Shown here piece after piece: positions 1,672 to 64,000 of a DNA stretch of 64,000 bases. The stretch comes from a virus. Taxonomy: Duplodnaviria > Caudoviricetes. The position numbers and the translations under genes were made by a program. Under the pieces are notes generated by a model that did not search any database, was not told where the DNA came from, and was given only the letters and a program-made list of their open reading frames with translations. The first letter of the stretch is position 1. Each line of letters starts with the position of its first letter. Location: IMG/VR virus record IMGVR_UViG_3300047160_005525, positions 12,777 to 76,776 of that record; one strand, written 5' to 3'.

Positions 1672-1776
1672 GAGGGCCGACTCTTCGGATGAAAAGTCAG
1701 CCCTCACCTCGCCATGCCTTGCCTAGCCTCGCCGTGCCTCGCCCTGCCTGGCCAAGCCTGGCCTCGCCAAGACCAT
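1672..1776 (-). ncRNA. Orphan GGY/NN pentamer repeat unit with 3' hairpin (putative VIPR-type guide RNA)
   Basis: About 13 regular RCC-NN pentamers on + (GGY-NN on -). Hairpin 1672-1705 has two C.A mismatches on + that are U.G pairs on -. Confidence 0.7.
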
Positions 1777-5014: not shown

Positions 5015-5161
5015 GGAAGACCTCCTAGAAGGTTTTTCGTGGCTAGAGCCGGGGCGACGAGGGCAAACGCCGTCTCGGCTCGCTGTAACTCTAGCGTAAC
5101 TGGTGATTTCACCCAAGAGCCCAGTCTGAAATCTGGCCTCACAACCTATGGAGTAACTACC

Positions 5162-5227
5162 ATGCCTATCTCTTTCGCAAACATTCCATCTAATATTAAG
5201 GTCCCTTTATATTGGGTGGAAGTGGAT
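5162..5227 (+). CDS. Tail sheath protein exon 1 (MPISFANIPSNIKVPLYWVEVD)
   Basis: Sheath-like N-terminus with GGAG RBS; the unspliced frame stops shortly after; joins in frame to exon 2. Confidence 0.85.
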
Positions 5228-7255: not shown

Positions 7256-7932
7256 TGGTAGCAAGGGCCGAACGCGCAGCAGCGAAGGCGGCAGGGCTTA
7301 TTCAATACTTTACGGGTAAGCCCTGCATCAATGGACATATTGGTCCGCGAAACACTGCTGGTGGCTATTGTCTTCAATGCATCAATGAACTGAGACAGTG
7401 TAAGCGTGCGAAGAAGAAAGGCTATCGCACACGCGCTGAGATCGCTGCTGATACGAACAAGCCGATGCGTCGCTGCAAGGCGTGTAAGAAGGAATTTCCG
7501 GCAACATCGGAATTCTTTGTGACGCTGCGAAAGATTCAGCCAAGCGGCACGGTTACGCTTGGTTTTGCGCGTGAATGTCGAGACTGTCGGAATAAGCGCT
7601 TCACTACTTTCTATGCAGATAACCGTGAAGCGATGATTCTGCGAGTTACGGAATATACGCGCGATAATCCGGCACCGAAACGCAATCGGGATGCAATTCG
7701 TTACATGCGCCGTAAGAAGCGCAATGGTTGTCCGCCGTGGGCTGATCAGAAGAAGCTCGAAACGATTTACGCGATTGCCGACTATCTGACGAAGAAGACC
7801 GGCATCCCGCATGAGGTGGATCACTATTATCCACTCATGCACAAGAAGTGCTGCGGTCTGCATGTGCCGTGGAATCTACGCGTGATTACGCAGGCGGCGA
7901 ACCAAGCCAAAGGCAATCGCTTGCCTGAGTAA
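7255..7932 (+). CDS. HNH homing endonuclease with Zn-finger motifs
   Basis: CxxC pairs; HEVDHYYPL...CGLHVPWNLRVITQAANQAKGN; inserted between sheath and tube genes. Confidence 0.85.
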   Translation: MVARAERAAAKAAGLIQYFTGKPCINGHIGPRNTAGGYCLQCINELRQCKRAKKKGYRTRAEIAADTNKPMRRCKACKKEFPATSEFFVTLRKIQPSGTVTLGFARECRDCRNKRFTTFYADNREAMILRVTEYTRDNPAPKRNRDAIRYMRRKKRNGCPPWADQKKLETIYAIADYLTKKTGIPHEVDHYYPLMHKKCCGLHVPWNLRVITQAANQAKGNRLPE

Positions 7933-7989
7933 GCCTACCTCTGCCCCGTCGTGACGACGCGGCCCAATCCCAACTGATGGAGAACTACA

Positions 7990-8355
7990 ATGGCAATTAA
8001 GTTTGCTGGAATTGCGTTCCTTATGATTGACGCGCAACAGTATCGCTTGCGTGGAAATCTCACGGTTTCGCCCAGTCCCTTGGAACGCACGATGATCGCA
8101 GGTCAAGATTTCGTGCACGGGTACCAAGAACTACCGCGAGTCCCGTACATTGAATGTGACCTCAGCGCGATGCCCGATCTCTCGCTTGAGGAACTGCTCG
8201 ACCAGACCGATGTCACGGTTGTCGCCGAGCTTGCGAACGGTCTCGCCTACTCGCTACACAACGCCACCGTCAAAGGCGCGTTCGAAGAGAACACGCGCGA
8301 TGGCCAATTGAGGGTGCGTTGGGAGGGCGTTTGGTGTGAAGAGTTGACTTGGTAA
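7990..8355 (+). CDS. Tail tube protein (Mu gpM-like)
   Basis: GQDFVHGYQELPRVPYIECDL...AELANG motif; synteny. Confidence 0.88.
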   Translation: MAIKFAGIAFLMIDAQQYRLRGNLTVSPSPLERTMIAGQDFVHGYQELPRVPYIECDLSAMPDLSLEELLDQTDVTVVAELANGLAYSLHNATVKGAFEENTRDGQLRVRWEGVWCEELTW

Positions 8356-8406
8356 GATATGAGCAATAACAAGGCGAGAGTAGCGGTATGGTTGTACGCA
8401 GCCTTC

Positions 8407-9138
8407 TCAAGTCTTACGCGACTTGCGGATGGCATGCATAAGCAATCGGGCTTGCCGGTTTCTCTCTCGTTGCTTGAGTCGTTCGTGCCGCTTGGTGATC
8501 GTGTTCTGGTGAGAATCCAGCTTCGCTTGGACTGCCTCATCAGGAGAACGCTTATCTCGCTCAGCGATAGCCTTTCGGTGAGATTCCAACTTTGCTCGCA
8601 CTCTTTCGTCAGGTGATGGATCGAGTTTTGCGTATGGTCCAAAGTACTCTTCGGCTGCGATGCAGTAAGCGGTGTGAGCGTCTTCTACCGTGAAATAGAC
8701 ACCAAGACTAATGCTCCGTCCGTTGACTTTGATCCGGGCTACGTATCGTTGAATGCCTTTGTGCCAGGTGACTCCTTTTGGAAGAGTCTTTCCTTCGATT
8801 AGCTTACGATTTCTAGCTTGTTCTGTATCATTTCCCGGACGAAGATTTGACCAACGGTTATCGCTGGGGTCGCCGTTCTTATGATCTACTTCGGGTTTGT
8901 CCCAAGCTTCGGTCTTTCCTGGCCAGTCGCCGGTCATATAGAGAACGGCCAAGCGGCTAGCCTGATAGAGTTTACCGTCGATCTTGATTTCTAGACGCCC
9001 GTCTTTCTTAGGCGTGCCTGCAACGCTACCCACGAGGACGCGGCCGTTCGGCTGTATGCGCCAGGTGAAGACGCCGGTGTCAGGATCGTAGTTGAGGATT
9101 TCGTCGAGACGAGCTTGCGTTAAGATGTCATCAGCCAT
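8407..9138 (-). CDS. HNH endonuclease with AP2 DNA-binding domain
   Basis: LNYDPDTGVFTW...VDHKNGDPSDNRWSNLR...KGVTWHK...ARIKVNGRSISLG; GGAG RBS before ATG 9138; antisense. Confidence 0.9.
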   Translation of the reverse strand: MADDILTQARLDEILNYDPDTGVFTWRIQPNGRVLVGSVAGTPKKDGRLEIKIDGKLYQASRLAVLYMTGDWPGKTEAWDKPEVDHKNGDPSDNRWSNLRPGNDTEQARNRKLIEGKTLPKGVTWHKGIQRYVARIKVNGRSISLGVYFTVEDAHTAYCIAAEEYFGPYAKLDPSPDERVRAKLESHRKAIAERDKRSPDEAVQAKLDSHQNTITKRHERLKQRERNRQARLLMHAIRKSRKT

Positions 9139-9235
9139 TGGCGATGCTCCTACATCGTTGGTGGTTAGGGACTCGCGGGTGAGTGACACCATCCGTGAGT
9201 CCCGCTCAGACTATCACAAGGCAATGAGGTGAACC

Positions 9236-9697
9236 ATGCCTGAAGTAAGGAAGATGCGCGAGGGTTTCGTCCAAGGCGACGAGCCCGAGCCTGTTGATGA
9301 AGGCGTTAAGAAACTCGAAGCGCCGGCGACGGAAGAAGCCGATGCCGAGGTGGTGCCGTTCGAAGCTCCAGCGGATGAGTGGCCACTGACGATCAAGCTG
9401 CTGCACAAGCCGTTGCAGATCAAGAAGGGCGAGGAGATCAAGGAACTGACGTTCCGCGAGCCGACGGCGGGCGATCTCATGCGTGCGGGTGGCAATCCAT
9501 GTCGGGTGGAGGTTATCGACGTGGGTGGCGGCATGGTGACGTGGCAGCCGATCATCGATGACATGAAGATGATTCGGTTGATGGCGTCGCTGTGTGGCGT
9601 GCATGAGCCGGTGTTGCAGAGGATGGACACGCGCGATTATTCGTCGTGTTCCCACAAGCTACGCAAATTTTTTCTCCCCGAACAAGGCATTTGGTAG
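9236..9697 (+). CDS. Tail assembly chaperone (Mu gp41-like)
   Basis: ELTFREPTAGDL motif; lies between tube and tape measure genes. Confidence 0.8.
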   Translation: MPEVRKMREGFVQGDEPEPVDEGVKKLEAPATEEADAEVVPFEAPADEWPLTIKLLHKPLQIKKGEEIKELTFREPTAGDLMRAGGNPCRVEVIDVGGGMVTWQPIIDDMKMIRLMASLCGVHEPVLQRMDTRDYSSCSHKLRKFFLPEQGIW

Positions 9698-9890
9698 GGG
9701 TGCATTGTTTGAGGATGTCAACGCCGACGAAGTGATTTTGAACTGCTATCGGCTAGCGGATCGTTTCCATCAAAATCCGGAAGTGTTTCTTGACATGGGG
9801 CTAAGCCGTGTCAATTGGCACATCCATTTTACCATCAAGTTGATTGAGGCGCAGAACAAGGCGCGCGCGGTGCAGAGTGATGAAGATTGA
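9674..9890 (+). CDS. Second tail-chaperone ORF (GT-type frameshift extension or separately initiated)
   Basis: Overlapping frame encodes CYRLADRFHQNPEVFLDM; U6 run at 9668-9673. Start uncertain. Confidence 0.6.
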
Positions 9891-12800
9891 TGCCTGAAAA
9901 TCAAGACCAAGAACTTAAACTTAGCGTGTCGCTTGACGATCAAGCGTCGGCGGAGCTTTCGCGTTTGGAAGCGCAGCTTCGCAGGCTTGGTTCGGCGAGT
10001 GGGCCGGCAGCATCAGGGCTTGGCAGTCTAGGCAAGCAATTAGGCGAGACAGGAGAACACGCAAAGCTATTAGAAGGAAGTTTGACCGGCATGGCGGCGA
10101 AGGCTGGCCTTGTCGGCGGGTTCTTTGCGGGGATTGGGACTGAAGTCGCCAAGATGGGCGCGCAGTTCATTTCGGCGACAACCGATCTCAAAGCCTACTC
10201 TGACGCGATGGTGAAGCTCGATCAGCAGTCGCGCGCAGCCGCGATGAGCATGGGGCAATTTCGTGCCGACGTTGCTGCGTTTCGCGAATCTGGTGTTGGC
10301 GCTGACCAAGCCGGCAAGATGATTCAGGGCTATGCTGATGCCCTGGCCAACTTGCAACAGCAGCACAGCGGCATTCGTCAGCAATTGCTTGCGGGGCAAA
10401 CGGGTGCCTACCGCGAGCGGATGCAAGAGCTATTGCAGACTATTGCGACGTCTGATCGCGAGACTTCTGTCAATGCTATTCGCCAAGCCGGTTTAGCAAT
10501 ACGCGCGGAATGGGAACAGCGCGGGCAAGCGGAGCGAGGCGCGGCGGCGCAGCGCTCATTCTATGCGCGTCTGGGCATGCCTGGCCTGGAAAACGTGACC
10601 ACCGAGTTGCGCAGGATTGGTGCTGAAGAACGTCTGATGGTCGAGCGACGTAAGGTCGATGCCCAACGATATCAGGTTGCACTTGAGCAACAAGTTGATG
10701 CCCGTCAGCGTTCGCTTGAATCGTTACAATCGATTGCATTTCAAATATTGCCGATTGCGAGCACAGCCGAGAAGATTGCGGAATGGACTAAAGAGATTGC
10801 TGATTGGTTTGAGAAATGGGAACGACAGATTCCTCAGAGAATAGAGCGAGCCGAAGCGGCCCCGGCTTCAGGGCGCGCATGGTACGATCCGCGAGCCATA
10901 TGGGACCCGCGCAACGTCGAGCGTGAACGGCGCGCGCGTCCCGAATTGCATGGTGAGGAATGGATACCGCTACCGCAAGCGCGGCCGGGCACTGCGCCAG
11001 GAGCGAGACCTGCGGCAGCAGCGCCATCACCGGAGGCGGAGCTACTGGGACGAACGCCGATAGTCGGCGGCGAGTATACGCGACAGTATTTTATGGGAGG
11101 TGAGCAGCAGCAACCTTATCCTGAGTCGCGGCAGTATTTCATGCAGCCTGGACAGCCGGCTCGTCCTGCAGGCACGCCGGGCAGTCAATTTCCGGGTCCG
11201 GAATCGATGGGTCGCGCGGCTCCAATCTTTACCGACGAGCAATGGGCCAATTGGATTGTCGGCATGATCCCCAGTGTAGGTCCTTTAGTTGGGGCAATAA
11301 AATTGGCGCGGTGGGCTCGCACGGTACCGCAGGAACAGATCACAAGAATGGAGAGGCATCAGCAAGCGCAACACGAGTCCAAACTGAAGCAAGAGGCACT
11401 CGGTCAATATGCTGGCATTCCTCCAATTGGACAAGCTCTAGCTGCCAAGCCTGAAGAAGAAGGTGCTGCTCCTGAGAGTGCTGGAGAGCGCGCCGGCGAA
11501 TTAATCGAACATGGTTTGCATGGTCTAGAATCTGCTGCGGGATTCTCTGGCTTTGATCAGGCTCAGCCGCAACAAAAAGAACACATCGATGCGGTGACTG
11601 AACTCACGACTGAGATGAAGCGGCTTAACGATTATCTGACCAGGGGAATAGGCGCGCCACGTGGCGCGCTTGGTTTTCTTGGGACGCAGATGGGCGGGCT
11701 CGCGCCGGGGCTAGGTGCGGGCACTGGCACAGCGGGCGCGCTCGGCGGGCCGATGGGTGCGTTACCCGGTTTCCCCACGGGTGGTGGAGGCGGCGGCGGA
11801 GGTGGCGGTGGAGGTTTGCCAACAGGTGCTCGACCAACAGGTGCTCCACCGACTGGCGTTCCACCGACCGGTGCTCCACCGACAGGTGCTCCGCCCACGA
11901 TAGGCACGCCGTTTGGCCCGCAAGCAGGAGCATTGACGCGCGGTGCTGCGGTGCCGCCGACTGCTGCAAAGCCCGGCGCTCCTGTTGAGGTGGGCACATT
12001 GAAGGCTCAGGCCAATGGTCGTGTCGATCCCACGCAATTGTATAATTATTTGCGGACCAAGTTCGCCAACTCGTCTCTCAATGGGTTTGTGCCGCCTGAT
12101 GGTGCGAAATTTGGGATCAGAACAGGGTCTCCTGAAGAGTGGGCGACTCTTGGCGTAGCTGTAGCGAAGCAAGAATCTGAGTTTAAGGCAGGAGAAGTTA
12201 ATACTCGTGATAAAGGTGGATCAGTAGGTCTCTTTCAGTTTGGGCAAGGCCAAAAAATATTTACAAAAGGTGGTGACCAACGTGATCCGCAACAGTCTGC
12301 GGATGCATTTGTCAGATCGTTTGAACATTACATTAAAGGTCCTGGTGGTCAGTGGGGCAAAGGCAATATTCATGCGCTTAGCGAGACTTTTGGTTCGATC
12401 AGGCGTCCTTGGGAAACGACTCAACATCTTCCGTTCGCGCGGGACATTGCTGCGAAGGCGGGACCTACTTCAGTCACGGCCGGCTCTCCCACTGAACTCA
12501 AGATCGAGAACGCGCGCGTTAGAGCGAACAGCGGCAACCCTGATCTTTCCGGGATGCTTGATCGCAACGTAACCAAGACTCAGTTGGCTGGAGGTGGTGG
12601 AGGGCTTCCTGCCGATGTTCCAGTCATTGGGCCGCATGCTCCGCATAACCTCTACCAGAAAGCGGGAATGCAGCCGATTACTGACGAAAGTAAATTGGCG
12701 ACAGTCGATACTCCATATGGACCCGTGAAAAGTTATCCACCGGCAGCAAAAGATTTTCTTCATTTCACACAAGCTCTCAAAGCCGCTGGTGCTCCGGTTC

Positions 12801-33229: not shown

Positions 33230-33421
33230 ATGCGTAAGCTTTTAGACGAAGCCTTGAATGACGCCTTCAAAGTGCAGTTCAATAACTTGTTCAATGTTCT
33301 TTGCGCAGCCCCAGATCATGATCCGGCAATTCAACGATTTCATCGCGGTTTAAAAAGGGCCGTTGAGATGCGCCGTCATGCCACGAGGGTTATCGAGCAC
33401 ATGCTTGAGGAAACCAAATGA
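33230..33421 (+). CDS. Small hypothetical protein resembling the C-terminus of the preceding ORF
   Basis: Stop overlaps the endolysin start. Confidence 0.55.
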   Translation: MRKLLDEALNDAFKVQFNNLFNVLCAAPDHDPAIQRFHRGLKRAVEMRRHATRVIEHMLEETK

Positions 33422-35022
33422 TCATCGCGCTGAGTTCAGGCCATGCTCGTGATTGCCCAGGCGCTTCGGACATCATCGATGAGGTCACGGAGGCGCGACG
33501 CGTGGTCGAGCGTACAGCGCAATATCTTCGCACCGCTGGCATCGATGTCCGCGTTTTCCATGACAACGAATCGACATCTCAGGACGAGAATCTAGACGCC
33601 ATCATTGACTGGACGAATGCCCAAGATGCCGATCTCGCGGTCTCGATTCATTTCAATTCGAACGGGACCACGTCTCAGCCGGTCGGTACTGAATGTTGGT
33701 ACAAGACGCAACGAGAGTTAGCGGCTGACGTCGCTGCCGAGATTGCTATATCTTCAGGGCTTATCGATCGAGGCGGCAAACAGACCGATTCTTTGGCATT
33801 TTTGAATGGGACCGAAGCTCCAGCGATCTTGGTAGAGGTCTGTTTCGTAAATTCACAGGCGGACTGCACAACCTATCGACAGAAATTCGATGACGTTTGT
33901 CGCGCTCTCGCCGGTGCGATATCGAGCGAGACAATCCCGCCGAGCGAGCCGGGTGAACGTGCCCCGCGTCCTGAATGGCCGCAATTCCCCGAAGCGCCAG
34001 AGGGACCACCATGGGACAGCAGACCTGAAGAAGTTCCGATCGAGGATCGACCGACACTACGGCGCGGCGATGAAGGCCCTCATGTGCTCGACATGCAGCG
34101 CATGATCCCGCGGTTCACCGGTGACTTCGACGGCGACTTTGGACCGACGACGGAAGACAATGTTCTGCGCTATCAGGACTCGCGCGGGCTCGATGCTGAT
34201 GGCATCTGCGGGCCGATTATGTGGGAGGCGCTGTACACGCACAAGCTTCCTGTGCCGCCTCCGCCGGCTCCGCCTGGTGCGCTTACGCCCGAGCAGCAGG
34301 TCGTGATCATGCGGCTCGCGAACGATTCTGCGATTGCTGATTACTATTGGCAGGATCGTGGTATTGCGCCAAACGGTTGGATCACTGGCATGGCATTGGC
34401 GTTCGGGCAAACTTACAAGAAATGGAAGGTTGGTCATCCGGCTGCACTCGAGATGGCGAAAGCGCGCATGGACACCGACAAGGACGTGCTCAATCTCTAT
34501 CGCGATGAGTTCGAGCAGCTTGGTATGCCAAATGAAGATGATGGGGCTGATACGTTGCGGCATCTCTTTGCCCTTCTTATCGGGCACGGCATGAGAGAGA
34601 GTTCGGGCGCCTACTGCGAAGGTCGAGACATGAGCGCCGACAATGTCGAAAGCGATACGGCTGAAGCTGGCGCCTTCCAGACTTCATACAACGCGCACAC
34701 CGCGAGCGATCCGGAATTCGACAACCTGATGGATGAATATCTGCACGGTCTATCGCCGGGTTATGAAGATGCTTTCTCGGAGGGCGTATCATGTTCGTCG
34801 GACGATTGGGAAAATTACGGCAGTCCAGAAGAGCGTGGCTATCAATTTCAGCGGCTGAGCAAAGACGCACCTGCGATGGCTGCCGAGCACTGCGCACTTA
34901 CCTCACGAAATCTCGCGAATCATTACGGGCCTTATCTGCGTCACGAGACCGAACTCAAGGAGGACGCAGATAACATGCTTGAGGCTGTGGCGGCTTATCT
35001 TGACGAAACCGAGCAAGCATGA
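33418..35022 (+). CDS. Modular endolysin: Amidase_3, peptidoglycan-binding domain, and putative lysozyme-like domain
   Basis: SSGH...E...SIHFNS...PAILVEVCFV; LRRGDEG...DGDFGPTTE...YQDSRGLDADGICG; GMRESSG...AGAFQTSYN. Confidence 0.88.
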   Translation: MIIALSSGHARDCPGASDIIDEVTEARRVVERTAQYLRTAGIDVRVFHDNESTSQDENLDAIIDWTNAQDADLAVSIHFNSNGTTSQPVGTECWYKTQRELAADVAAEIAISSGLIDRGGKQTDSLAFLNGTEAPAILVEVCFVNSQADCTTYRQKFDDVCRALAGAISSETIPPSEPGERAPRPEWPQFPEAPEGPPWDSRPEEVPIEDRPTLRRGDEGPHVLDMQRMIPRFTGDFDGDFGPTTEDNVLRYQDSRGLDADGICGPIMWEALYTHKLPVPPPPAPPGALTPEQQVVIMRLANDSAIADYYWQDRGIAPNGWITGMALAFGQTYKKWKVGHPAALEMAKARMDTDKDVLNLYRDEFEQLGMPNEDDGADTLRHLFALLIGHGMRESSGAYCEGRDMSADNVESDTAEAGAFQTSYNAHTASDPEFDNLMDEYLHGLSPGYEDAFSEGVSCSSDDWENYGSPEERGYQFQRLSKDAPAMAAEHCALTSRNLANHYGPYLRHETELKEDADNMLEAVAAYLDETEQA

Positions 35023-35145
35023 GAAACGGCCGCCCATTTTGTGACGACCGTTTCTCCCCTGCCATGCCTTACCGGGCCATGCCGCGCCCCGCCAGACCGG
35101 ACCTTGCCACGCCCAACCGGGCCATGCCGCGCCCTGGCTAGCGAC
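35021..35145 (-). ncRNA. Orphan GGY/NN unit with 3' hairpin
   Basis: About 15 RCC triads at 35061-35133; hairpin GAGAAACGG...CCGTTTCTC at 35021-35056. Confidence 0.7.
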
Positions 35146-35455
35146 CTGGCGTTTTAGCGCTCGGTCGCTGCGACATCTTATCATCATTTACGTTTTAGAA
35201 AGTGAGCCGCCGCCGAGTGAGCCGAAGGTGGGTTAGCGTCGAGTTCGCAATCACGCCGGCAATGCTTGCAGCAGCGACAGTTCTTTTTTGGCTTGAGCGG
35301 ACACGAGCGCGGCAGCACCGAATTTCGGAGCTTGCATTGCGGGCAGGATTTCGCGACGGGCGGCATGGAAATGGCAATATCAGACATGCGCAACGACTGA
35401 ATTATTTAACTTCGCAACTCAATTAAATAATTTCGTAATTCACAGGAGGGATCAA

Positions 35456-35557
35456 ATGACTGAAGAACAAATGAATGCCGCCAAGATCGCCGGCGTTGTT
35501 GCCTTGATTGTTATAGCGGTCGCGCTGTTTGGTTGGCTGATGGGCTGGTGGGGCTAA
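35456..35557 (+). CDS. 33-aa single-TM peptide
   Basis: MTEEQMNAAKIAGVVALIVIAVALFGWLMGWWG with AGGAGG RBS; read by eye, below the ORF-track cutoff. Confidence 0.7.
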   Translation: MTEEQMNAAKIAGVVALIVIAVALFGWLMGWWG

Positions 35558-35612
35558 CATGGCTCGCATACCGGCTCATCTGATTCGTCGTCTAAAACAA
35601 GAGGAGAGATGC

Positions 35613-35948
35613 ATGAGCTATACGCTTCCAAGCGGGATGCAAGTTACTTGCCAAATTTCTTACGTTGATGCCGCGGGCAATCCCGCTGTCGTTGATGGTG
35701 ATGTGGCGTGGTCATCGAGCGATGAAACTAAGCTCGTCGTCTTTGTCAACTCACAGGATTCGACAAAGGTCGTCCTGCGAACTGTCGGGCCAGTCGGCCT
35801 CGTTCAAGTCAAAGCAACGGCTGATGCTGATTTAGGCGCGGGCGTTCGCGAACTTGTCACTACCGCCGATGTCGACATTATCGCCGGTGAGGCAGTTGCC
35901 GGCATGATTTCACCAATCGGTCCCGCCGAGCCAATCCCCGCGGCATAA
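35613..35948 (+). CDS. Ig-like domain protein
   Basis: GAGGAG RBS; VDAAGNPAVVDGDVAWSSSD...VQVKATADADLG. Confidence 0.65.
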   Translation: MSYTLPSGMQVTCQISYVDAAGNPAVVDGDVAWSSSDETKLVVFVNSQDSTKVVLRTVGPVGLVQVKATADADLGAGVRELVTTADVDIIAGEAVAGMISPIGPAEPIPAA

Positions 35949-35950
35949 AT

Positions 35951-36058
35951 GAGAGCGAGAGCTTTCGCTCCCGCTCTCCCCTACCTTGCCTCGCCGGGCC
36001 GTACCATACCATTCCTTGCCCGACCACACCCCGCCGCGCCCCACCAGACCTCGCCGCG
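35951..36058 (-). ncRNA. Orphan GGY/NN unit with 3' GAAA-capped hairpin
   Basis: Minus strand reads (GGY-NN)x~15 then GAGAGCGGGAGC-GAAA-GCUCUCGCUCUC. Confidence 0.72.
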
Positions 36059-36074
36059 GTTAATCTCTAGTATC

Positions 36075-36161
36075 ATGACCCAATCTTGGCGCCAAATTCT
36101 GATCTGGAGTGCGTTATTGGTCGCTGGTATTGCATTGATCATGCTAGCGTTCGGGGGCTGA
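36075..36161 (+). CDS. 28-aa single-TM peptide
   Basis: MTQSWRQILIWSALLVAGIALIMLAFGG. Confidence 0.5.
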   Translation: MTQSWRQILIWSALLVAGIALIMLAFGG

Positions 36162-36163
36162 TC

Positions 36164-36355
36164 ATGGCCGATGATCAGGGTTATGCAGCGACGCTTGAGG
36201 GTTTCGTTGCGCGCTTTGATGATCTCGCCATCAAATTGCGCGAGGCCGCAAACGCGCAGGACTATGATGAGGTCTCCGATCTGGTCGACGAGCTTCTCGA
36301 AGATCTCGAACGAGCGGCCGACTTCATCAAGAAAAAACGCGAGGAGCGGGGATAA
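36164..36355 (+). CDS. Small acidic helical hypothetical protein
   Basis: ATG at 36164 after a GGGGG RBS-like run. Confidence 0.55.
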   Translation: MADDQGYAATLEGFVARFDDLAIKLREAANAQDYDEVSDLVDELLEDLERAADFIKKKREERG

Positions 36356-36452
36356 TTCTGGGGATGTTTTGCGATTTGCTATTTCACAGGAGCGTGGATG
36401 CGATAGACTGATTCTGTAGCGTTGAGTCCTGTTCGTTACACTCGTCTAACTG

Positions 36453-36497
36453 AACCCGGTCGAGCTTGAAGTGGAGGCTCGGCCGGGTTTTTTATTT
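36453..36497 (+). terminator. Intrinsic terminator ending the late operon
   Basis: AACCCGGTCGAGCTT-loop-GGCTCGGCCGGGTT followed by a T tract, at the convergence of + and - gene blocks. Confidence 0.85.
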
Positions 36498-36616
36498 AAT
36501 CCTCGGTGGGGAGTAGATCGCCGATTTCATCATCGGGATCGGGTGCGGCTGAAGGATTAAGCTGATCGAGCAGCTTACGTAACGCGCGGGCCGGTGACAC
36601 TGCTTGACTTAATAAT

Positions 36617-36727
36617 GAGAGCGAGAGCTTTTGGCCCTCGCTCTCCCTTGCCTCGCCGCGCCGCGCCAAGCCTTGCCGTGCCTGGCCTAGCCACGCCCTA
36701 CCCCGCCTAGCCGCGCCCCGCCACATT
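36617..36727 (-). ncRNA. Orphan GGY/NN unit with 3' hairpin
   Basis: About 15 RCC triads at 36650-36722; hairpin 36617-36645 nearly identical to the one at 35951. Confidence 0.72.
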
Positions 36728-36739
36728 AAAAATAAAATC

Positions 36740-37054
36740 TCATCGCTCTTTCCCCAGCCATCGATAAGCTTGATGCCGCAAACTACGTGGCACAGCACGC
36801 GCTTCGACGCGAATATATGAGCTTGTGGCTTTAGAAGGCAATCGATACCAAACGAGTTTACTCGATTTCCAGGTTCGGTGAGCAACGTAGACTTGGCCAT
36901 TGCGCGGTCGGCTGACGAAGAGACCGTGTAAAGCATGGCGAGAAGTGCGGGGAAGCGCAGCTGGTGGGGCTGTGTGTGCTACGCTCCCCCTGGCCGGCAT
37001 CACGGGGGGCTGTTGCAATGCCGGGTCCAAATTGTAGTCGTTAGAGAAGTCCAT
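36740..37054 (-). CDS. Hypothetical protein
   Basis: ORF in the minus-strand block, ending just upstream of a pentamer unit. Confidence 0.5.
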   Translation of the reverse strand: MDFSNDYNLDPALQQPPVMPARGSVAHTAPPAALPRTSRHALHGLFVSRPRNGQVYVAHRTWKSSKLVWYRLPSKATSSYIRVEARAVPRSLRHQAYRWLGKER

Positions 37055-37059
37055 TGGGA

Positions 37060-37206
37060 TCAGTCTTGTTCCGGTTTTTTATCGATTTCTGCCGGCACCT
37101 CACCTCTGCCCTGGCAATGTGTGCAGGGATCTCGCCGCGTGATCTGGCCTTTGTCGTCGTGCGTGACGAGCCAGCAAGTGCCGTGGCAGCAGGGACAGCT
37201 GACCAT
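37060..37206 (-). CDS. 48-aa DnaJ-type zinc-finger protein
   Basis: MVSCPCCHGTCW...DPCTHCQGRGEV, read by eye. Confidence 0.7.
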   Translation of the reverse strand: MVSCPCCHGTCWLVTHDDKGQITRRDPCTHCQGRGEVPAEIDKKPEQD

Positions 37207-37209
37207 GAT

Positions 37210-37530
37210 TCATCGCCGAGCTCCTCCGAAGTGCGACGGCGCCGGTCCAGACGCGTGGCCGGTGACGCTGCCGCGGGAATCGTAGAACGTCGTCGTGCCG
37301 CCCGGCGTGGTCGTTGTCGTGCCGAGCGAATTGCCACGGCTGTCGAAGTAACGCACGCTGCCGGCGCCCTGTGGCGCCGCGGTGCCGATCGAATTGCCAC
37401 GAGAGTCATAGAAGCGGGTCTGTTCTTCGGCGTTTGCACGATGCAGCGATAAGCCTAACAATAAGAGTACGACTGCTGTGATTGTTGTGAGTATCCATGT
37501 GTGCAGGCGCAGTTCAAACATCAGAGACAT
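37210..37530 (-). CDS. Secreted protein with three YDSRG-type repeats
   Basis: Signal peptide ending ANA; FYDSRGNSIG, YFDSRGNSLG, FYDSRGSVTG. Confidence 0.7.
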   Translation of the reverse strand: MSLMFELRLHTWILTTITAVVLLLLGLSLHRANAEEQTRFYDSRGNSIGTAAPQGAGSVRYFDSRGNSLGTTTTTPGGTTTFYDSRGSVTGHASGPAPSHFGGARR

Positions 37531-37870
37531 TTCTGTTTTCCTTCTGGATGACGATGGTGATGGTTGGATTTTTGAGCACGACTAGGATGGTGGGCCGTGG
37601 AGCGCAGAGTTGTCGTAGCTCCTCGCGCGGCCACAGCCATCGCAGCAGCAGCCAGCCGATCGCCAGCATGATCAGCAGGTGGATCATGAGACCATCAACT
37701 TGGTTTTGGGTGGCGGCTTCAGTTGCTTAATTTTGGCCTGCACAGATTCTGCGGCTTTTAGACGATCCTTCGAACAATCGATGTACATATCCATTGCAAG
37801 CTCGACTTCGAAGCATTCGTCGTCGGACAAAGTGAGCGTATGTTGCTTGTCGTTCATTACTTAGTTCTCC

Positions 37871-38047
37871 TCACGGTCTGCATTGTTCGGGATTGCCGCC
37901 GCGACGCAGGCATTCTTCTTGCTGCTGCTGAAGCTGCTGCTGGCGCAGTGGGTCGAAGCGGTGCGGCTGCGCGCAACTCAACAGCAATGCGAGCAGTGCT
38001 CCGACGATGGGCGACAAATAAAGCCAAAAATCTTCCCAACGGTTCAT
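37871..38047 (-). CDS. Small putative lipoprotein
   Basis: Hydrophobic stretch ending LLLSC. Confidence 0.5.
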   Translation of the reverse strand: MNRWEDFWLYLSPIVGALLALLLSCAQPHRFDPLRQQQLQQQQEECLRRGGNPEQCRP

Positions 38048-38259
38048 GGCTTTTGCTCTATCAAAAATCTTGGCAGCAGCGACCGTGCGCAGTCGAGGCA
38101 TAAATCCCAATCTCTCGGTCGCGATGGATTGCTTGCCTTGGCGCCACGCTCGATATGCGCTTCGAGGATACGCTGGACATTGATTTGGAGACGAATCTCA
38201 ACGCGATCTTCGTCGGTGATATCGCGATCGCATTTTTCGCAGAAATATTTCATGGTCAT
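38044..38259 (-). CDS. Small CxxC zinc-binding protein
   Basis: FCEKCD...LCLDCA. Confidence 0.65.
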   Translation of the reverse strand: MTMKYFCEKCDRDITDEDRVEIRLQINVQRILEAHIERGAKASNPSRPRDWDLCLDCARSLLPRFLIEQKP

Positions 38260-38510
38260 TTCAGGAAAGTCCCTATGAACATGCCGAGCCCGAAAATCAG
38301 CACGCCGACGAACGTACTGATGATCATTGGAATGCGCGACGACGGAAGTTCGAATGGCGGCGGCACGCGGTCCTTGAGCGCTTGATCAATTCTCTCAAGG
38401 TGTTTGTGCAATTCAATATTTTGTGCATCAGTTCGCGCGGCCGGCGCAAAGCGCTCGTCGATCTTATGTTCGAGCGAAGCAAATAGCTCGCGCAGTTCGT
38501 TGTCTTTCAT
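38256..38510 (-). CDS. Hypothetical protein with C-terminal TM helix
   Basis: Coupled ORF. Confidence 0.6.
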   Translation of the reverse strand: MKDNELRELFASLEHKIDERFAPAARTDAQNIELHKHLERIDQALKDRVPPPFELPSSRIPMIISTFVGVLIFGLGMFIGTFLK

Positions 38511-38731
38511 GACAGTTCGCTCTCGTCGACCGGGTCGTAAGCATCCGGGAATGGCACGATCGGTTCGAGTCCATTCTTGATGCGCAGCGGATTGACGCGC
38601 TGGACGCAGTCAAGGCAGATCGGCTCTCTCGTGCCGGTTTTCGGACTCGTGATGCTCGGTACGCGCATTGGGTTGTAAGAGAAGATGCGATGACAGCCGA
38701 AACATTCCGATGTGCAGAGTGCGTAGCCCAT
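38507..38731 (-). CDS. Small CxxC zinc-binding protein
   Basis: CFGCH...ICLDCV. Confidence 0.65.
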   Translation of the reverse strand: MGYALCTSECFGCHRIFSYNPMRVPSITSPKTGTREPICLDCVQRVNPLRIKNGLEPIVPFPDAYDPVDESELS

Positions 38732-44241: not shown

Positions 44242-44287
44242 TTGACTTTCCGAGGCGAAAGTCCACATCTATCAATGACGCTTCATG
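44242..44287 (+). promoter_or_regulatory. Putative rightward integrase promoter overlapping an inverted repeat
   Basis: TTGACT -35 overlapping GACTTTC-N6-GAAAGTC; the -10 element is weak. Confidence 0.4.
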
Positions 44288-44341
44288 GAGCTTCATGGCT
44301 CGCCTGGCCATGGACAGGCCACCAGAGAGAAGGATCGGAAG

Positions 44342-45613
44342 ATGACCAGCTTCAAGCCCAAGGATCTGCAGACGCCCGGAGGGCGCCGCGGATTACTCCC
44401 TCGCCCCAAATGCTACTTCGTCTCGCTGTGCCCCGGTGTCTCGCTTGGTTACCGTCGCCTCGCGGATGTAGCCGGCGCGCCGCGCGCGGGCGCCTGGACG
44501 CTGCGCAAGGCTGACGGCAAGGGTGGCGGCTGCCCCAAGGGTTTCGCCGTCGCCGACGACGTCGTGCAGGCCAACGGCAACGAGATCCTGACCTACAAGC
44601 AGGCCGTCGCCAAGGCGCTGGCTTTCGCCGGCGGCACCACTGCCCAGGATGATCCCCCGATCACCGTCGCTATGGCCATCCTCGACTACACCAAGTCGCT
44701 GATCGAACGCGGCCGCCGTCCCTACAACGCGACCCGCCTTTGGCGCCTCGACAAGGACGGCAATCCAATTCCCGGTCTGGTTCCGGCCTGGCTAGCTGAT
44801 CGCCAAGTCGGCGCCCTAACGATCAAGGAGCTTGAGCGGTGGCGCGAGAGTCTCGGCTACAAGCACAAGGGCACCCTCAATCGCACCATCAAGCCGCTCA
44901 AGAAGGCGCTGAACCGCGCTGCCGCGCGCGATCACCGTATCACCAACACGCATGTGTGGAGCGGTGCGGAAAGCGGCTTGCCGCTCATTCCCAAGGCTGA
45001 CGGCGTGCGCCGCGTCTTTCTTGAGCCGGCTCAGGTGAATGCGCTGATCGATGCTGCATACGCGTATGAGGCCGATCGCGGCTTTGGCTTGTTCGTGGAA
45101 ACTGGCGCCGAAACTGGCGCGCGCCCGAGCCAGCTATGGAAACTCAAGGTCTCCAGCCTCAACGGCAACCGCGTGATGATGCCGCCGTCCAAGAAGGGGC
45201 CAGATGGCAAGGATCTGCCTCCAGTCGCGGTCCCCATCACTCCGGTCCTGGCCGCCAAGCTTCGCGAGGCGGCGGGGCGCCGCAGCCCCAGCGAGCCGCT
45301 CCTGCTTCGCGATGAGCGCTTCGAGCAGCGTGAATGGGTGAGCGACAACGGCGCTTGGATAGATCCCTTCAACGCAATCGTCGCCAAAGTCCGCGAGCAG
45401 ATGGAGTTGCCCGCGGACGTCACCTACTACGCGCTTCGCCACTCCACCGCGAAGCGACAGATCCGGGCTGGCATTGATCTGGTCACCATCGCCCAGCGCC
45501 TGGAGACCAGCGTGGCCACGTTGCAGAAGCACTACGCTGCCGCCATCAGCGAAATCGCCGGCGATGACACGGTCGGGCTACTCGAACGCCCCGCGCTCCG
45601 CGTAGTCGCATGA
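44342..45613 (+). CDS. int: Tyrosine recombinase/integrase
   Basis: TGARPSQL (R); YALRHS; LETS...KHY (Tyr); N-terminal arm-binding-like SLGYRR segment. Confidence 0.9.
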   Translation: MTSFKPKDLQTPGGRRGLLPRPKCYFVSLCPGVSLGYRRLADVAGAPRAGAWTLRKADGKGGGCPKGFAVADDVVQANGNEILTYKQAVAKALAFAGGTTAQDDPPITVAMAILDYTKSLIERGRRPYNATRLWRLDKDGNPIPGLVPAWLADRQVGALTIKELERWRESLGYKHKGTLNRTIKPLKKALNRAAARDHRITNTHVWSGAESGLPLIPKADGVRRVFLEPAQVNALIDAAYAYEADRGFGLFVETGAETGARPSQLWKLKVSSLNGNRVMMPPSKKGPDGKDLPPVAVPITPVLAAKLREAAGRRSPSEPLLLRDERFEQREWVSDNGAWIDPFNAIVAKVREQMELPADVTYYALRHSTAKRQIRAGIDLVTIAQRLETSVATLQKHYAAAISEIAGDDTVGLLERPALRVVA

Positions 45614-57419: not shown

Positions 57420-57600
57420 TTGTCTCAACTCCTTTTTCGTTTGTCTGCTCTCGTCGTTGTCGCATCATTCGAATCTTTGCTGGAATTACGATATAACTCG
57501 TGCATTCATAACAAGCGCGGCCATTGTTGACTGGTTGCGCACTGTTTCCCCAGCCGCCGAAGGGGCGGAAGCAAATCGAGCAGATGTGGCTATCAAGCAT
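57412..57600 (-). CDS. Small zinc-finger protein
   Basis: CSICF...GNSAQPVNNGRACYEC. Confidence 0.65.
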   Translation of the reverse strand: MLDSHICSICFRPFGGWGNSAQPVNNGRACYECTSYIVIPAKIRMMRQRREQTNEKGVETNG

Positions 57601-58576
57601 CGCCGCTTGCCTCATGCGCTTCCTCCGGTGTTCTCTTGAGGATCTTGAACAACCTGAAGTCCGTAGCTTCGACGGTGTAGGCTTTGCGATGCTGATGTTT
57701 CCACGACAAACACTGTCCATGCGGCAACAGGCCGAATGTATTTTGGCCGAGCTTGGCTTCAAGTTCGGTTTTGAGGGCTGTCTCTTTCTCTCTCATGCGT
57801 TTGATCGCGGCTTGAGTCTCGATCAGTTCGTCCACTGCCACGATCGCCCGGTTGTCAGTCTTGAGATCGATCGCAGTGCCAAGATCGCGCGGATATAGCT
57901 CGCGCACGAGCGCATCATCTCTTTCCGGTTCCCATGGCGGCATGATGTTGCGATCGAGATATTCACGGAAAAATGTGGCGATGCGATAGTCGATGCGATC
58001 TTCAAGTGCCGGGTTACGATCAACGTCAAACAGCCTGAAGTGCCATCCCCATTCGCCGTTGATGATCACCGCGATCACGCCCCATTTAACGTCGTTCAAT
58101 GCCATTTCATGCAGCGCTTGAATCGTGTAGGCCGCCGGCGGGATTGCGGATCCGTGTTGGATATTGTCGCTTGGGTCATCAAGCCATTTTTGCCGGAAGA
58201 TATTGCGAGCTACGACTTTTGCTTGAACAATGCCGATGCCGTTGCGCCCAGGCGCTTTAGCAAATCCATCCGGGGTACAAGCTTGGCGTTTTTCTTCATC
58301 GATGACGTGAACTTTGGCGCGAAGGATTTTCCATTCGGGATAACACTCGGCCATCGCCTCGAACACCGCGGCCTCGGCCCAGCGTCCGCGTTGGAGCACT
58401 TCGCTGTCGGCGAGTGGTGGTCGCAATCCTTTTTTTTCTGCATAGAGTGCGGCCGGCGAGCCCCATGTGCTTTCGCCAACCACGATTGCAGTCTCTGACG
58501 CATTGATGTAATTCCGCCGCCGCTCAAGCCATAGCTCGCGCGAAATATCGGTGAGCGGAACGCGAATGATGGTCAT
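57593..58576 (-). CDS. YqaJ/lambda-exonuclease family protein
   Basis: WLERRRNYINASE...LYAEKKG...RGRWAE...CTPDG...QAK...Y.IQ. Confidence 0.9.
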   Translation of the reverse strand: MTIIRVPLTDISRELWLERRRNYINASETAIVVGESTWGSPAALYAEKKGLRPPLADSEVLQRGRWAEAAVFEAMAECYPEWKILRAKVHVIDEEKRQACTPDGFAKAPGRNGIGIVQAKVVARNIFRQKWLDDPSDNIQHGSAIPPAAYTIQALHEMALNDVKWGVIAVIINGEWGWHFRLFDVDRNPALEDRIDYRIATFFREYLDRNIMPPWEPERDDALVRELYPRDLGTAIDLKTDNRAIVAVDELIETQAAIKRMREKETALKTELEAKLGQNTFGLLPHGQCLSWKHQHRKAYTVEATDFRLFKILKRTPEEAHEASGDA

Positions 58577-58672
58577 GAAATCCCTGCCTCGCCTCGCCTC
58601 GCCTTACCAGGCCATGCCATTCCTCACCTGACCATGCCGTGCCTGGCCATGCCACGCCTAGCCGCAATTCAA
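58577..58672 (-). ncRNA. Orphan GGY/NN unit carrying the array linker ends, between two genes
   Basis: Minus strand AUUGCGGC-(NN-GGY)x15-AGGGAUUUC-AUG; one triad is GGA. Confidence 0.72.
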
Positions 58673-59207: not shown

Positions 59208-59588
59208 TCATTCCCATTTGAACTCATCCAATTTGTATCGTTCACTGTCTTTCACCTTCGTGCCCATCTTTGCGGCGAGTTCATTGAGTAACTCGGACTT
59301 GATACGCGTGAACACGCAATGTTTGCAGATCGGTATAGCCGCTCCCTTCCATTTATTTTTTTGCGAGCAAATACAGATTCCGAACGCTGCGATTGCATGG
59401 TCATCATCTGCAAATGAACCGCGGCAAAAAAAACATCTCTTCCGTTCTTCGCGATTTAAGCCATGCATCGTATGCTCGATTGCTTGCATTGCCCATTGCG
59501 ACTTGGCATCTCCTGATTGTGCTGCCGCCGGCAGTTCATTGAGTTCATGCATTTCGAAGATTGCTATGTCCACATTCCACAGTTTCAT
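59208..59588 (-). CDS. CxxC zinc-binding protein
   Basis: CFFCRG...ICKHCV. Confidence 0.6.
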   Translation of the reverse strand: MKLWNVDIAIFEMHELNELPAAAQSGDAKSQWAMQAIEHTMHGLNREERKRCFFCRGSFADDDHAIAAFGICICSQKNKWKGAAIPICKHCVFTRIKSELLNELAAKMGTKVKDSERYKLDEFKWE

Positions 59589-61129
59589 TCTGCGGCCTCG
59601 CCAAACATCTCGCCCTGTCGCGTGCGCGCCGGCAATGGATGCAAGTTAGGAACTTCTTGGATGAGTTTCATACCAGCGCATTGCGAGTTTGGAATGCCGT
59701 TGAGATTTGGTTTGCAATAGACAGTACGTTTAGCTTCGCGCGCCTGATTGATCAGGTCGATGACGTGTCCCATGTCAGCTTGTTTAGCCGGAATGAGCAC
59801 TGAGCCGCCCTTACCGTCGGGTTGATAAGTCGCGCTTTGCGAGCCGATGACAATGAAGTCAAATACCGAGAGATCGCGGAATTTGAGTCGTTCTAACATT
59901 GGTTCGACAGATAACCATTTCACGCGAACGCCACTGATCTTAGCGAAAGCCGTCTCAGCAATTTTGACTCTATCTTGGCAGTCGACCGTGGTGCCGAGCC
60001 ATGAAGTCTCTGGGAAAGCTACGCCTTTTTCGAGCAGTTCGACATAACGCTGCGGAAATTTGGTGAGGAATAGATATTCCCACCAAGGCGCAGCCCTGCA
60101 GGCGACAAACACCTTGTCGATCCATTCGTCAGGGACCCACTTGCCGAACAAATCGCCCATCGATGAAACGAATACACGGCCGAGTCGCGGGTCCTGTTTC
60201 CAGCCATCTGGCAGCGCGGAATTTTTGGGCGCATCCAATCGATGTTCGAAAAATGTCGGCTCAAATCCGAACGGATAGTGTTTCTTGAGGTTTGGATTGA
60301 TCTCGGTGCCTTCACGCGCATAGCAGTAAGGACAGTTGTGCAGGCAACCAGAGACGATAGTCCAAGTCCATGCGGCCCATGAGACTTGATCATTTGTCTC
60401 GATGAAATGGGGCTTCGACTTGGGCAGCGGATAGTTTGCTGTCTTGCCGGTGTGCGTGATGACGATAGTGAAATGCTTGCCTGGTGCGCCATCATCCGGC
60501 TTAGGTGCAGCCGCCTTCTCGCGCCGCATGGTCTTGTAAGCTTCGGGAAGACTTTGTTCGCCGCGTTCCACGCTGGTCGCCAGAGAAACGGAATAAGATT
60601 TGATCGCTTTTGCCATTGCAACAGTACGCGGGTCGACCTTTGCAATCTCCGCAATATCATCGCGGGCGCGATGCTCTTTTCTTCGTTTCTTTTTGTCCGT
60701 CCGGGTATGTAAACCCCGCTGCGACTTTTTATTGTGCCGTTGTTCAATCCTCGTTTTGTTACCCTTCTTCGAGCCCTCCATTTTCCGCTCTTGTGCCGCC
60801 TTCTCAAATTGCGGAGCAAGATCGAGCGCAAGCATTGCGCGCTGTCCAGCAGTGAGATCGCGCCGGCGCAAATTGACGCTGACGATGTAATTGAGGATGT
60901 CGGTCTCCGTGTAGCTCTTGGATAACCGCTTGAAGATCGGCTTCACGCCCGCGCGCTTGCATGCTTTCCAGCGGTTCACACCGTCAATGATCATTTTGCC
61001 GTTAGCGGTGAGTATGATTGGCTGGCGTTGCTTGTTCGCCTTGATGTCCTGCGCCAACGCCTCAAGCTCGTCTTCCGACAAAGCAGGAAATCGTGCAGCG
61101 ACGGGATGGATCTTCAATTCGGCAGACAT
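59585..61129 (-). CDS. ParB-like N-terminal domain fused to DUF5131 (phage Gp37/Gp68, radical-SAM-like)
   Basis: IHPVAARFPALS...IIDGVNRWKAC; GCLHNCPYCYA; RVFVSSMGDLF; FLTKFPQR; WLGTTV; WLSVEPML. Confidence 0.88.
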   Translation of the reverse strand: MSAELKIHPVAARFPALSEDELEALAQDIKANKQRQPIILTANGKMIIDGVNRWKACKRAGVKPIFKRLSKSYTETDILNYIVSVNLRRRDLTAGQRAMLALDLAPQFEKAAQERKMEGSKKGNKTRIEQRHNKKSQRGLHTRTDKKKRRKEHRARDDIAEIAKVDPRTVAMAKAIKSYSVSLATSVERGEQSLPEAYKTMRREKAAAPKPDDGAPGKHFTIVITHTGKTANYPLPKSKPHFIETNDQVSWAAWTWTIVSGCLHNCPYCYAREGTEINPNLKKHYPFGFEPTFFEHRLDAPKNSALPDGWKQDPRLGRVFVSSMGDLFGKWVPDEWIDKVFVACRAAPWWEYLFLTKFPQRYVELLEKGVAFPETSWLGTTVDCQDRVKIAETAFAKISGVRVKWLSVEPMLERLKFRDLSVFDFIVIGSQSATYQPDGKGGSVLIPAKQADMGHVIDLINQAREAKRTVYCKPNLNGIPNSQCAGMKLIQEVPNLHPLPARTRQGEMFGEAAE

Positions 61130-63201: not shown

Positions 63202-64000
63202 GCAATCATCGAAATATCCCTGCCTCGCCCGGCCACGCCGCACCCGGCCATGCCCAACCAGGCCTTGCCGTGCCTGACCATGCCGCGCCGCAATCAAAAA
63301 AACGAATCCCTGCCTCGCCTCGCCTCGCCCAGCCAAACCACGCCCGGCCATACCGCGCCTCGCCCGGCCCGCGCCGCACCGCGCCGCAGCAAACCTCACT
63401 AAATGTCAATCAAGAAAGTATCCCTGCCTTGCCTCGCCATGCCACGCCTCGCCCGACCATGCCTCGCCTTGCCCGGCCAGGCCCGGCCCTGCCCAGAAAT
63501 CAAAAAACTATCCTCGCCTCGCCTTGCCAAGCCCCGCCTAGCCCGACCTTGCCATACCAGGCCATGCCCCACCGCAATCATTAAAATATCCCTGCCTCGC
63601 CTTGCCCTGCCTCGCCCCGCCTCGCCTCGCCTTGCCGTACCTCGCCGTACCTTGCCAAGCCGCAATCGAAAAAATATCCCTGCCTCGCCGCGCTTTGCCG
63701 CGCCTCGCCTCGCCTCACCAGACCAGACGTCGCCCGGCCACGCCCTGCCTCGCCGCAATCATCGAAAATATCCCTGCCTCGCCGTACCCGGCCGCACCGC
63801 GCCCCGCCACGCCGCGCCGTGCCTAACCTCGCCCGGCCGCAATCATCGAAATTATCCCTGCCTCGCCCCGCCTCGCCTGGCCGTGCCCAGCCTGACCCCG
63901 ACTCGCCTAGCCATGCCTCGCCCGGCCATGCCGCAATCATCGAAATATCCCTGCCTCGCCTTGCCCAGCCTCGCCATGCCAGGCCTCACCCAGCCTCGCC
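63202..64000 (-). repeat. Array of at least 9 GGY/NN pentamer units with conserved AT-rich linkers (putative VIPR-type guide RNA array), runs off the window
   Basis: Linker consensus on + is GCAATCATCGAAATATCCCTGCCTCGCC; each unit has about 12-17 RCC-NN pentamers with a different NN string. Confidence 0.85.

Follow-up and report, generated by a model that had tools for sequence, protein, structure and literature searches.

Probable solo vrRNA genes in an uncultured soil phage and their predicted aim at rival alleles of neighbouring genes

Introduction

What might three tracts of tandem pentamers, each followed by its own hairpin, be doing among the genes of a phage? The question is raised by a window of 64,000 nucleotides, the whole stretch of DNA that was analysed, which comprises bases 12777-76776 of the 76,776-bp IMG/VR phage record IMGVR_UViG_3300047160_005525 and belongs to an uncultured soil phage. 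An earlier note on this DNA had taken the three units, named C, D and E here, for stand-alone guide cassettes. The analysis described below leads, with a probability of about three in four, to the reading of C, D and E as genes for stand-alone (solo) vrRNAs of a VIPR system, C and D lying beside the phage's own resistant copies of two genes and being aimed at the alleles of its rivals.

The first descriptions of VIPR date from 2026, and what is known of its natural biology comes from a single phage-satellite pair of E. coli. In this system a small RAMP protein, Vipr, coats a vrRNA composed of 9-16 YNNGG repeats and a 3' tail, and the complex reads double-stranded DNA (dsDNA) by NN pairs only, with one target base skipped per unit, usually at the codon wobble; by these means rival mobile elements are silenced (bioRxiv 2026 preprints, 10.64898/2026.04.26.720920 and.720927). 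Lopez and others described solo vrRNAs, without vipr, in satellites and in vipr-null SUSP1-like phages, the latter carrying 1-2 of them, and defined the solo vrRNA operationally as a GGYNN array with no Vipr match on its contig or with the nearest match beyond 20 kb (Lopez et al., bioRxiv 10.64898/2026.10.15.759431). The VIPR system and the notion of solo vrRNAs are therefore already published. Two features of the present phage were not found in the VIPR preprints consulted: solo guides with plain hairpin tails dispersed in structural and lysis modules, and guides that each lie beside a diverged version of the gene they target.

Pentamer units and their assignment to VIPR

Pentamer runs were located by a register-aware scan for CCNNR, which corresponds to GGYNN on the minus strand. 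There are 15 such runs in the genome, all on the plus strand and hence GGYNN on the minus strand: five dispersed units with a hairpin (A-E, of which A lies outside the window), one dispersed unit without a hairpin (F), and nine or more units in a main array (Table 1). The earlier note had counted about 15 pentamers in each of C, D and E; the tandem pentamers are there in all three, the exact number being 16. A pattern of eight CCNNR units was found 76 times in the window, always on the plus strand, and not once in 100 shuffles. Over the 15 units, CC (GG in the RNA) is kept in 215 of 219 pentamers and R (Y in the RNA) likewise in 215 of 219, and the internal NN positions make use of 16 different dinucleotides. 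The two or three units nearest the tail are constant across all 15 (CT, TC/AT, TT/TC) and never match targets, so that in this phage group the information is carried by about 13 of the 16 units.

Searching IMG/VR with a 12-pentamer pattern retrieved more than 120 contigs, and in 71 loci the arrays adjoin a single protein family of about 204 amino acids. The profile of this family, made from 40 Vipr proteins, matches the "SUSP1 Vipr protein" (PDB 36pp) with an E value of 1.5e-39, and on this similarity the pentamer arrays are assigned to VIPR. Units C, D and E have the 9-16 tandem YNNGG units, the conserved GGY and the hypervariable NN of published vrRNAs. They also fit the published definition of solo vrRNAs, which bears out the earlier description of stand-alone cassettes: no Vipr was found on the record, and even if a vipr gene followed immediately after the end of the contig, its distance from C-E would exceed 27 kb. 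Other candidates, namely a binding site for a TRAP-like ring protein, a rut site, a packaging repeat and a G-quadruplex, were dropped once the units fitted the published vrRNAs and targets had been found.

Table 1. Positions in the window of the pentamer units, of the genes beside them and of the phage's own, diverged versions of the guide C and D sites.
Feature	Coordinates	Strand	Description
Solo vrRNA B	1672..1771	-	Hairpin 1672-1705, then pentamers (run 1702-1771); 10 guide units
Endolysin gene	33418..35022	+	Amidase_3 + PG_binding_1 + C-terminal domain
Own, diverged version of guide C site	34360..34397	+	In endolysin gene, codons GIAPNGWITGMAL; 20/26
Solo vrRNA C	35021..35136	-	Hairpin 35021-35056; pentamers 35057-35136: 3 constant tail-proximal + 13 guide units
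p129 gene	35559..35948	+	129-aa protein of no known family, single copy; directly upstream of D
Own, diverged version of guide D site	35826..35863	+	In gene 35559-35948, ADLGAGVRELVTT; 21/26
Solo vrRNA D	35951..36058	-	Hairpin 35951-35978; pentamers 35979-36058: 3 constant + 13 guide units
Intrinsic terminator	36452..36490	+	16-bp stem + T run; ends plus-strand late/accessory genes; between D and E
Solo vrRNA E	36617..36725	-	Hairpin 36617-36645; 16 pentamers 36646-36725
Solo vrRNA F	58582..58666	-	No hairpin; directly upstream of RecE-like exonuclease start codon
Main vrRNA array	63206..64000	-	9 or more units, AU-rich linkers, no hairpins, runs into contig end

Target matches of guides C and D

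A gapped target search on the NN strings, put forward in the earlier note as a check, found sites in related phages for guides D (26/26) and C (24/26), and nothing above chance for E. Target searches followed the 1-nt-skip rule, with two bases read and one skipped per unit. Guides were scored on their 13 variable units, that is, on 26 bases; the way of counting used in the preprints takes all 16 units, or 32 bases.

For guide D, an 11-unit pattern (22 fixed bases) has exactly two matches in IMG/VR, on the contigs L169 and L170. Both fall at homologous codons of homologs of p129, the 129-amino-acid gene directly upstream of unit D, with 62-66% amino-acid identity, and both extend to 26/26 (ADLGAGVRNIITP). 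Over all units the match on these contigs is 27/32 (84%), in codon register, which lies above the NN match of at least 80% used as the criterion for published natural targets. In L169 and L170 the p129 homolog is located in the head module. Within the genome, guide D has a unique best match in the phage's own p129 gene, at a site 112 nt away from the unit and likewise in codon register; this site agrees at 21 of the 26 bases, and four of the five mismatches lie in the tail-proximal part of the guide. Among 300 shuffles of guide D the maximum was 21, and none reached the observed value.

Guide C gives a similar picture with the endolysin gene that precedes it. The guide's unique best match in the genome is the own endolysin site, which lies 659 nt from the unit and follows the codon register, the wobble base being the one skipped. 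About 25 relatives of the endolysin, taken from IMG/VR and soil metagenomes, have their best in-locus match at the homologous endolysin site, with 22-24/26 against 20/26 for the own allele. The guide spells G-F-T-Q-G-M-A-L; the best-matching relatives have GFTQGMAL, and the own allele alone has GWITGMAL. In the other relatives W or Y replaces F, and TQGMAL is kept in all. None of 300 shuffles of guide C reached 24, and on these loci shuffled C and D guides never rose above 20-21/26. The match in relatives amounts to 24/26 (92%) on the variable units but to 25/32 (78%) over all units, and an exact 12-unit pattern of guide C has 0 matches in IMG/VR viral contigs. Most of the endolysin relatives, at about 60% amino-acid identity, have no cassette near the endolysin. 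Judged by these matches, the guides appear to point at rivals' alleles whether the Vipr that they use is the phage's own or a rival's; this aim at alleles of adjoining genes had gone unnoticed in the earlier note.

Hairpin tails and the RNA strand

The earlier note had placed a hairpin after each of C, D and E on the minus strand, and had held the minus-strand RNA to be the better-folding form. Read in the minus-strand sense, the hairpin of C has 14 bp including two U.G pairs, that of D has 12 bp and the GAAA loop already recorded for one of the three, and that of E has 12 bp and is near-identical to that of D, so that stems of 12-14 bp follow all three units. In the plus-strand versions the stems are interrupted by A.C mismatches and break into 9+2, 7+4 and 9+3 bp, respectively. 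The tail of C has a fold energy of -24.3 kcal/mol on the minus strand and -14.6 kcal/mol on the plus strand, and that of D one of -26.3 and -19.0 kcal/mol, respectively, the plus-strand stems folding 7-10 kcal/mol worse. The likeness of the last two hairpins could be specified: D and E have an identical 3' arm, with an 18-nt flank and the handle pentamers in common, and their 5' arms differ at two positions, both of them G.U<->A-U swaps that keep the pairing in the minus-strand RNA only.

Stems are found in all ten hairpin-tailed dispersed units that were compared, five of them here and five in relatives (L024, L035 twice, L090 and L133). The stems are of 12-21 bp and of unrelated sequences, contain 18 G.U pairs in total in the vrRNA sense, with the strand asymmetry present in 10/10, and are followed in each case by an AU- or U-rich 3' flank. 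The comparison suggests that the structure has been kept and the sequence has not, and that the minus strand is the RNA strand, because G.U pairs hold the stems there in all ten. RNAalifold on a MAFFT alignment of the ten tails gave no structure, since unrelated stem sequences do not align, and the tail structures were taken from per-sequence folds instead of alignment folding. When sister cassettes were sought with the D/E hairpin, two matches were obtained, both without pentamers and hence put down to chance.

The dispersed cassettes have the last two pentamers (…GAGG CAGGG) in common with the main array, and the AU-rich linker of the array (consensus in the RNA sense GGGAUAUUUYGAUGAUUGCGG) is absent from them. 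In the array, AU-rich linkers stand between units that carry no hairpin, an arrangement suggestive of processing from a long precursor; stand-alone units would need a 3' end of their own. Hairpin tails are also present on about 17% of the vrRNA units that adjoin vipr genes in IMG/VR loci.

The position of the units was likewise as first described, two of them coming just after plus-strand stop codons: C begins within the stop codon of the endolysin (TGA 35020-35022) and D begins 3 nt past the stop of gene 35559-35948, and E is located past a strong plus-strand terminator at 36452-36490. Such an arrangement could be expected of elements that act on the plus strand or as DNA, whether as mRNA 3' stabilisers or terminators with C-rich Rho-loading sites or as recombination "boundary" sequences; A, B, C and D all start at or just past plus-strand stop codons, the plus-strand tract is C-rich, and the cassettes sit at module junctions that vary among relatives. 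We nevertheless regard this explanation as highly improbable. No T run follows the hairpins on the plus strand, where the stems are the weaker ones, and the true plus-strand terminator between D and E looks different. Moreover, the 5-nt periodicity with two free positions and the foreign matches in codon register would be left unaccounted for, and the same type of unit is arrayed beside vipr genes elsewhere.

Guides of the other dispersed units

A match to an adjoining gene is not confined to C and D. Ten units of guide B match the last 10 codons and the stop of the preceding gene (1640-1668) at 14/20, which is among its top three self-matches. Guide F matches the RecE-like exonuclease gene (57593-58576, minus strand) at 58095-58132 with 19/26, a tied-best self-match, and with all units scores 24/34, a value reached by 0 of 200 shuffles. 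The self-matches of B, C, D and F are all in codon register. Four of the six solo guides read an allele of the adjoining gene; E does not, and unit A has no match to its neighbour gene. In the relatives L024 and L090, too, the best in-locus match of the guides is immediately beside themselves. As to position, the end of F is only 5 nt away from the exonuclease start codon, so that the unit overlaps the ribosome-binding region of that gene, and L133 carries a unit placed in the same way, at 11885-11974. Among the guides of the main array, none matched the phage's own genome or the fetched loci significantly.

For guide E, the best match in the 162 fetched loci and in the own genome is at chance level and falls short of the 80% target line. 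A reading of the minus-strand open reading frame (ORF) at 36740-37054 by this guide is not supported, as the match of 17/28 is tied with eight other places and the ORF is without coding signal. The missing target of E and the heterogeneous tails would suit cassettes that are decaying or inert, either former guides or Vipr sponges, and the similarity of guide to own gene, 77-81%, could hint at a local origin of which the resemblance to the neighbour gene is a by-product. This is an improbable account of the locus, given that the scaffold is intact, that hairpin pairing is kept through G.U<->A-U changes, and that foreign alleles are matched better than the own ones (D 26/26, C 24/26), the opposite of what a by-product of local origin predicts. 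We also know of no process that converts NNx codons to GGYNN pentamers.

Gain and loss among relatives

Presence and absence of the cassettes were compared among related phages, as the earlier note had proposed. Most relatives are without cassettes at these junctions; L024 has a hairpin cassette at a junction syntenic with that of A, and L035 has one at a junction syntenic with that of B. Since most relatives lack cassettes while these two carry syntenic ones, cassettes appear to be gained and lost at gene junctions within the phage group. The proposal that they were acquired separately from the main array is plausible: the cassettes have the last two pentamers of the array and not its linker, and are missing from most relatives. 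A search for sibling arrays by means of the array linker gave 0 matches.

One relative is of interest for the array itself. In L061 (IMGVR_UViG_3300048903_000252), an array without linkers lies at 8679-9096, directly downstream of a vipr gene, with register-shifted units (…GCCTGCC…) that resemble the "staggered" arrays of the VIPR preprint.

The protein partner and points against the reading

Several observations weigh against the interpretation of C, D and E as solo vrRNA genes aimed at rivals. No vipr gene was found in the 76.8-kb record by a six-frame profile search at E<=10, by hmmsearch or by hhalign. A sigma-70 promoter scan gave nothing convincing upstream of C or D. The 11-unit pattern of guide E has 0 matches in viral contigs and 0 in genome contigs. 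The 78% of guide C over 16 units is just below the published 80% line, and the own allele is matched by the trimmed guide D at 21/26 (81%), for which reason self-immunity is not self-evident. Finally, the tails here are simple hairpins of four different sequences, with no pseudoknot seen, and differ from the linker of the main array; the characterised type II systems have one invariant tail. The only promoter-like feature that the scan returned for C and D is an AT-rich -10-like box 5-9 nt ahead of the units.

The Vipr profile itself performed well in a positive control, matching the record of L061 with an E value of 4.9e-45. The vipr gene of L061 immediately precedes the array in the RNA sense, and this is the point at which the present record stops, as this record ends inside its main vrRNA array. 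CheckV estimates the record as 100% complete. A large terminase gave no match in the record with two common Pfam models, PF03237 and PF03354, and because of this and of the array abutting the contig end, the record is probably incomplete in spite of the estimate.

These circumstances bear on another explanation, according to which the phage has no vipr of its own, and its solo guides, perhaps with the array as a whole, depend for loading on the Vipr of a resident prophage or a co-infecting rival, whose genes they then attack. The lack of a detectable Vipr in a record rated complete would follow naturally, and so would the difference between the orphan tails and the array linker. The hairpin tails found on about 17% of vipr-adjoining units elsewhere imply that tails of this kind suit some foreign Viprs. 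Solo vrRNAs in vipr-null phages have been published, and the solo vrRNAs of satellites and of such phages do work in this way (Lopez et al.); likewise, no Vipr was found in a 56-kb relative that carries solo units. On the other side, the record stops inside the array exactly where L061 has vipr, the missing terminase makes its completeness doubtful, the last two pentamers common to orphans and array suggest one partner protein, and the 15 units here compare with 1-2 solo vrRNAs in the published vipr-null phages. Loading by a foreign Vipr is accordingly an unlikely explanation, though one to be taken seriously.

Two ParB-like genes, which may be candidates for the accessory vap gene of a complete locus, come next after the array on the minus strand, and the array lies upstream of both in that sense: 61929-63128 (399 amino acids, with a DGQHR motif) and 59585-61129 (514 amino acids, ParB_N and DUF5131). 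A 227-amino-acid family with weak similarity to ParB_N recurs beside arrays in seven IMG/VR loci and has a weak match to the 514-amino-acid protein (E 9e-4). No relatives of the array-adjoining ParB-like gene were found in viral contigs.

Proposed mode of action

Beyond the matches of the guides, we infer the following sequence of events for C, D and E as solo vrRNA genes. Each unit would give rise to a minus-strand RNA, either antisense to the late and accessory genes or placed downstream of them, with 13-14 variable dinucleotides in a GGY scaffold, two or three constant pentamers (…GAGG CAGGG) and a hairpin of 12-14 bp with an AU-rich flank, the hairpin presumably ending and protecting the RNA. 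A Vipr filament is predicted to coat this RNA and to read dsDNA, two bases being read and one skipped at the codon wobble. Loaded in this manner, guide D would read 13 codons of the 129-amino-acid gene in the rivals' version, and guide C 13 codons of a conserved endolysin motif in the version of the relatives, and the Vipr-coated RNAs would bind the rival's p129 and endolysin genes and block their transcription. The phage's own adjoining alleles would escape through non-synonymous changes at 5-6 of the read positions, and linkage would keep the guide and the resistant allele together through recombination. Unit E, with the same tail and handle, would be a sister cassette of D.

Comparison with known systems

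The closest counterparts are the solo vrRNAs of Lopez and others, which are alike in being GGYNN guides away from vipr, in having targets in competing mobile elements and in a self-match lower than the match to the rival. The published ones are located either in satellites or where the deletion of a vipr-vap1 locus has left a scar; they end in the same pseudoknot tail as the cognate system and are directed against vipr, vrRNA loci, satellites or host REP decoys. Unlike them, the present phage has five hairpin-tailed guides and one tail-less guide across structural, lysis and recombination modules, plus a large array. With type II VIPR, as in the Escherichia phage SUSP1 and a Pseudomonas fulva prophage, there are in common the GGY/NN scaffold, the 1-nt skip at the wobble, targets on either strand and a role between phages. 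The unit number is also similar, 16 here with 13 variable against the 12 protomers of SUSP1 filaments. The present units differ from type II in that no vipr and no clear vap was found on the record, in having a plain hairpin or an AU-rich linker instead of a pseudoknot, and in the two or three constant tail-proximal units that do not match targets.

Outside VIPR, the mini-CRISPR arrays of archaeal viruses are used in conflicts between close relatives, with few guides, no effector genes and an own genome that escapes by mismatches; their guides are contiguous spacers that depend on the host Cas and, unlike the cassettes here, are not known to be placed beside a resistant allele. The free-standing homing endonucleases (seg/mob) encoded by T4-like phages cut the relative's allele close to the insertion site of their own genes, so that weapon and resistant allele, being neighbours, are co-inherited in mixed infections. 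There a protein nuclease cuts the DNA and sets off gene conversion, whereas in the present case an RNA guide is predicted to silence transcription, and signs of conversion or mobility were not seen.

Surroundings of the units

The stretch from the endolysin to the terminator resembles two moron-type cassettes with one guide apiece. A 21-bp tandem repeat at 35396-35442 (2.2 copies, ACTCAATTAAATAACTTCGCA) is located in the AT-rich gap that precedes a Shine-Dalgarno site and an ORF for a membrane protein of 33 amino acids (35456-35557); another small membrane ORF, 36075-36161, comes after unit D. In the roughly 2 kb past unit E (36730-38700), no ORF has coding signal by a codon-usage score trained on long genes. 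Elsewhere in the window, an integrase-like gene lies at 44285-45613, and a plus-strand group I intron (Rfam RF00028, 65 bits, full-length model) lies at 5182-5439, just upstream of the tail sheath gene at 5498-7255. It was the sole match to Rfam at the gathering threshold, no family falling on the units, and a tRNA scan found none. At the start of the record (G000 1-12776, locus L172) there are a short ORF resembling a major head protein (14-1045), a fusion of a protease with a major capsid protein (8289-10967) and a portal gene (11325-12773).

A blastn search of window positions 34000-38000 against GenBank phages gave no match, and the soil-metagenome contigs that aligned to 33500-37000 were only short pieces and pentamer-tract cross-matches from other arrays. 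Among the sequencing runs listed for this DNA, none is an RNA run. No relatives of the endolysin were found in the bacterial genomes searched, and for this reason no host was assigned.

Implications

This phage offers a natural VIPR example from an uncultured soil phage, with a perfect 13-codon target in rivals and a second guide on a conserved endolysin motif, and for both C and D the own adjoining gene has amino-acid changes exactly at read positions. A rule for finding the targets of orphan guides is thereby suggested, namely to inspect the alleles of the adjoining gene, and the findings also suggest that self-immunity is gained through non-synonymous escape, that the dynamic may be one of selfish modules, and that a vrRNA tail can consist of a plain hairpin.

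A further and more tentative idea, which we hold to be possible rather than probable, is that a solo vrRNA and its resistant allele together make up a linked module of two parts, the RNA-guided counterpart to a homing endonuclease and the allele immune to it. If this were true, such a module would, in mixed infections, penalise relatives that have the sensitive allele, and would spread by recombination, since only recombinants inheriting both parts would be safe. It would also explain why guides are found at junctions genome-wide and not in one array. The linked modules, that is, the small membrane protein, p129 and guide D on the one hand and the endolysin and guide C on the other, would then be exchange units that shape phage mosaicism.

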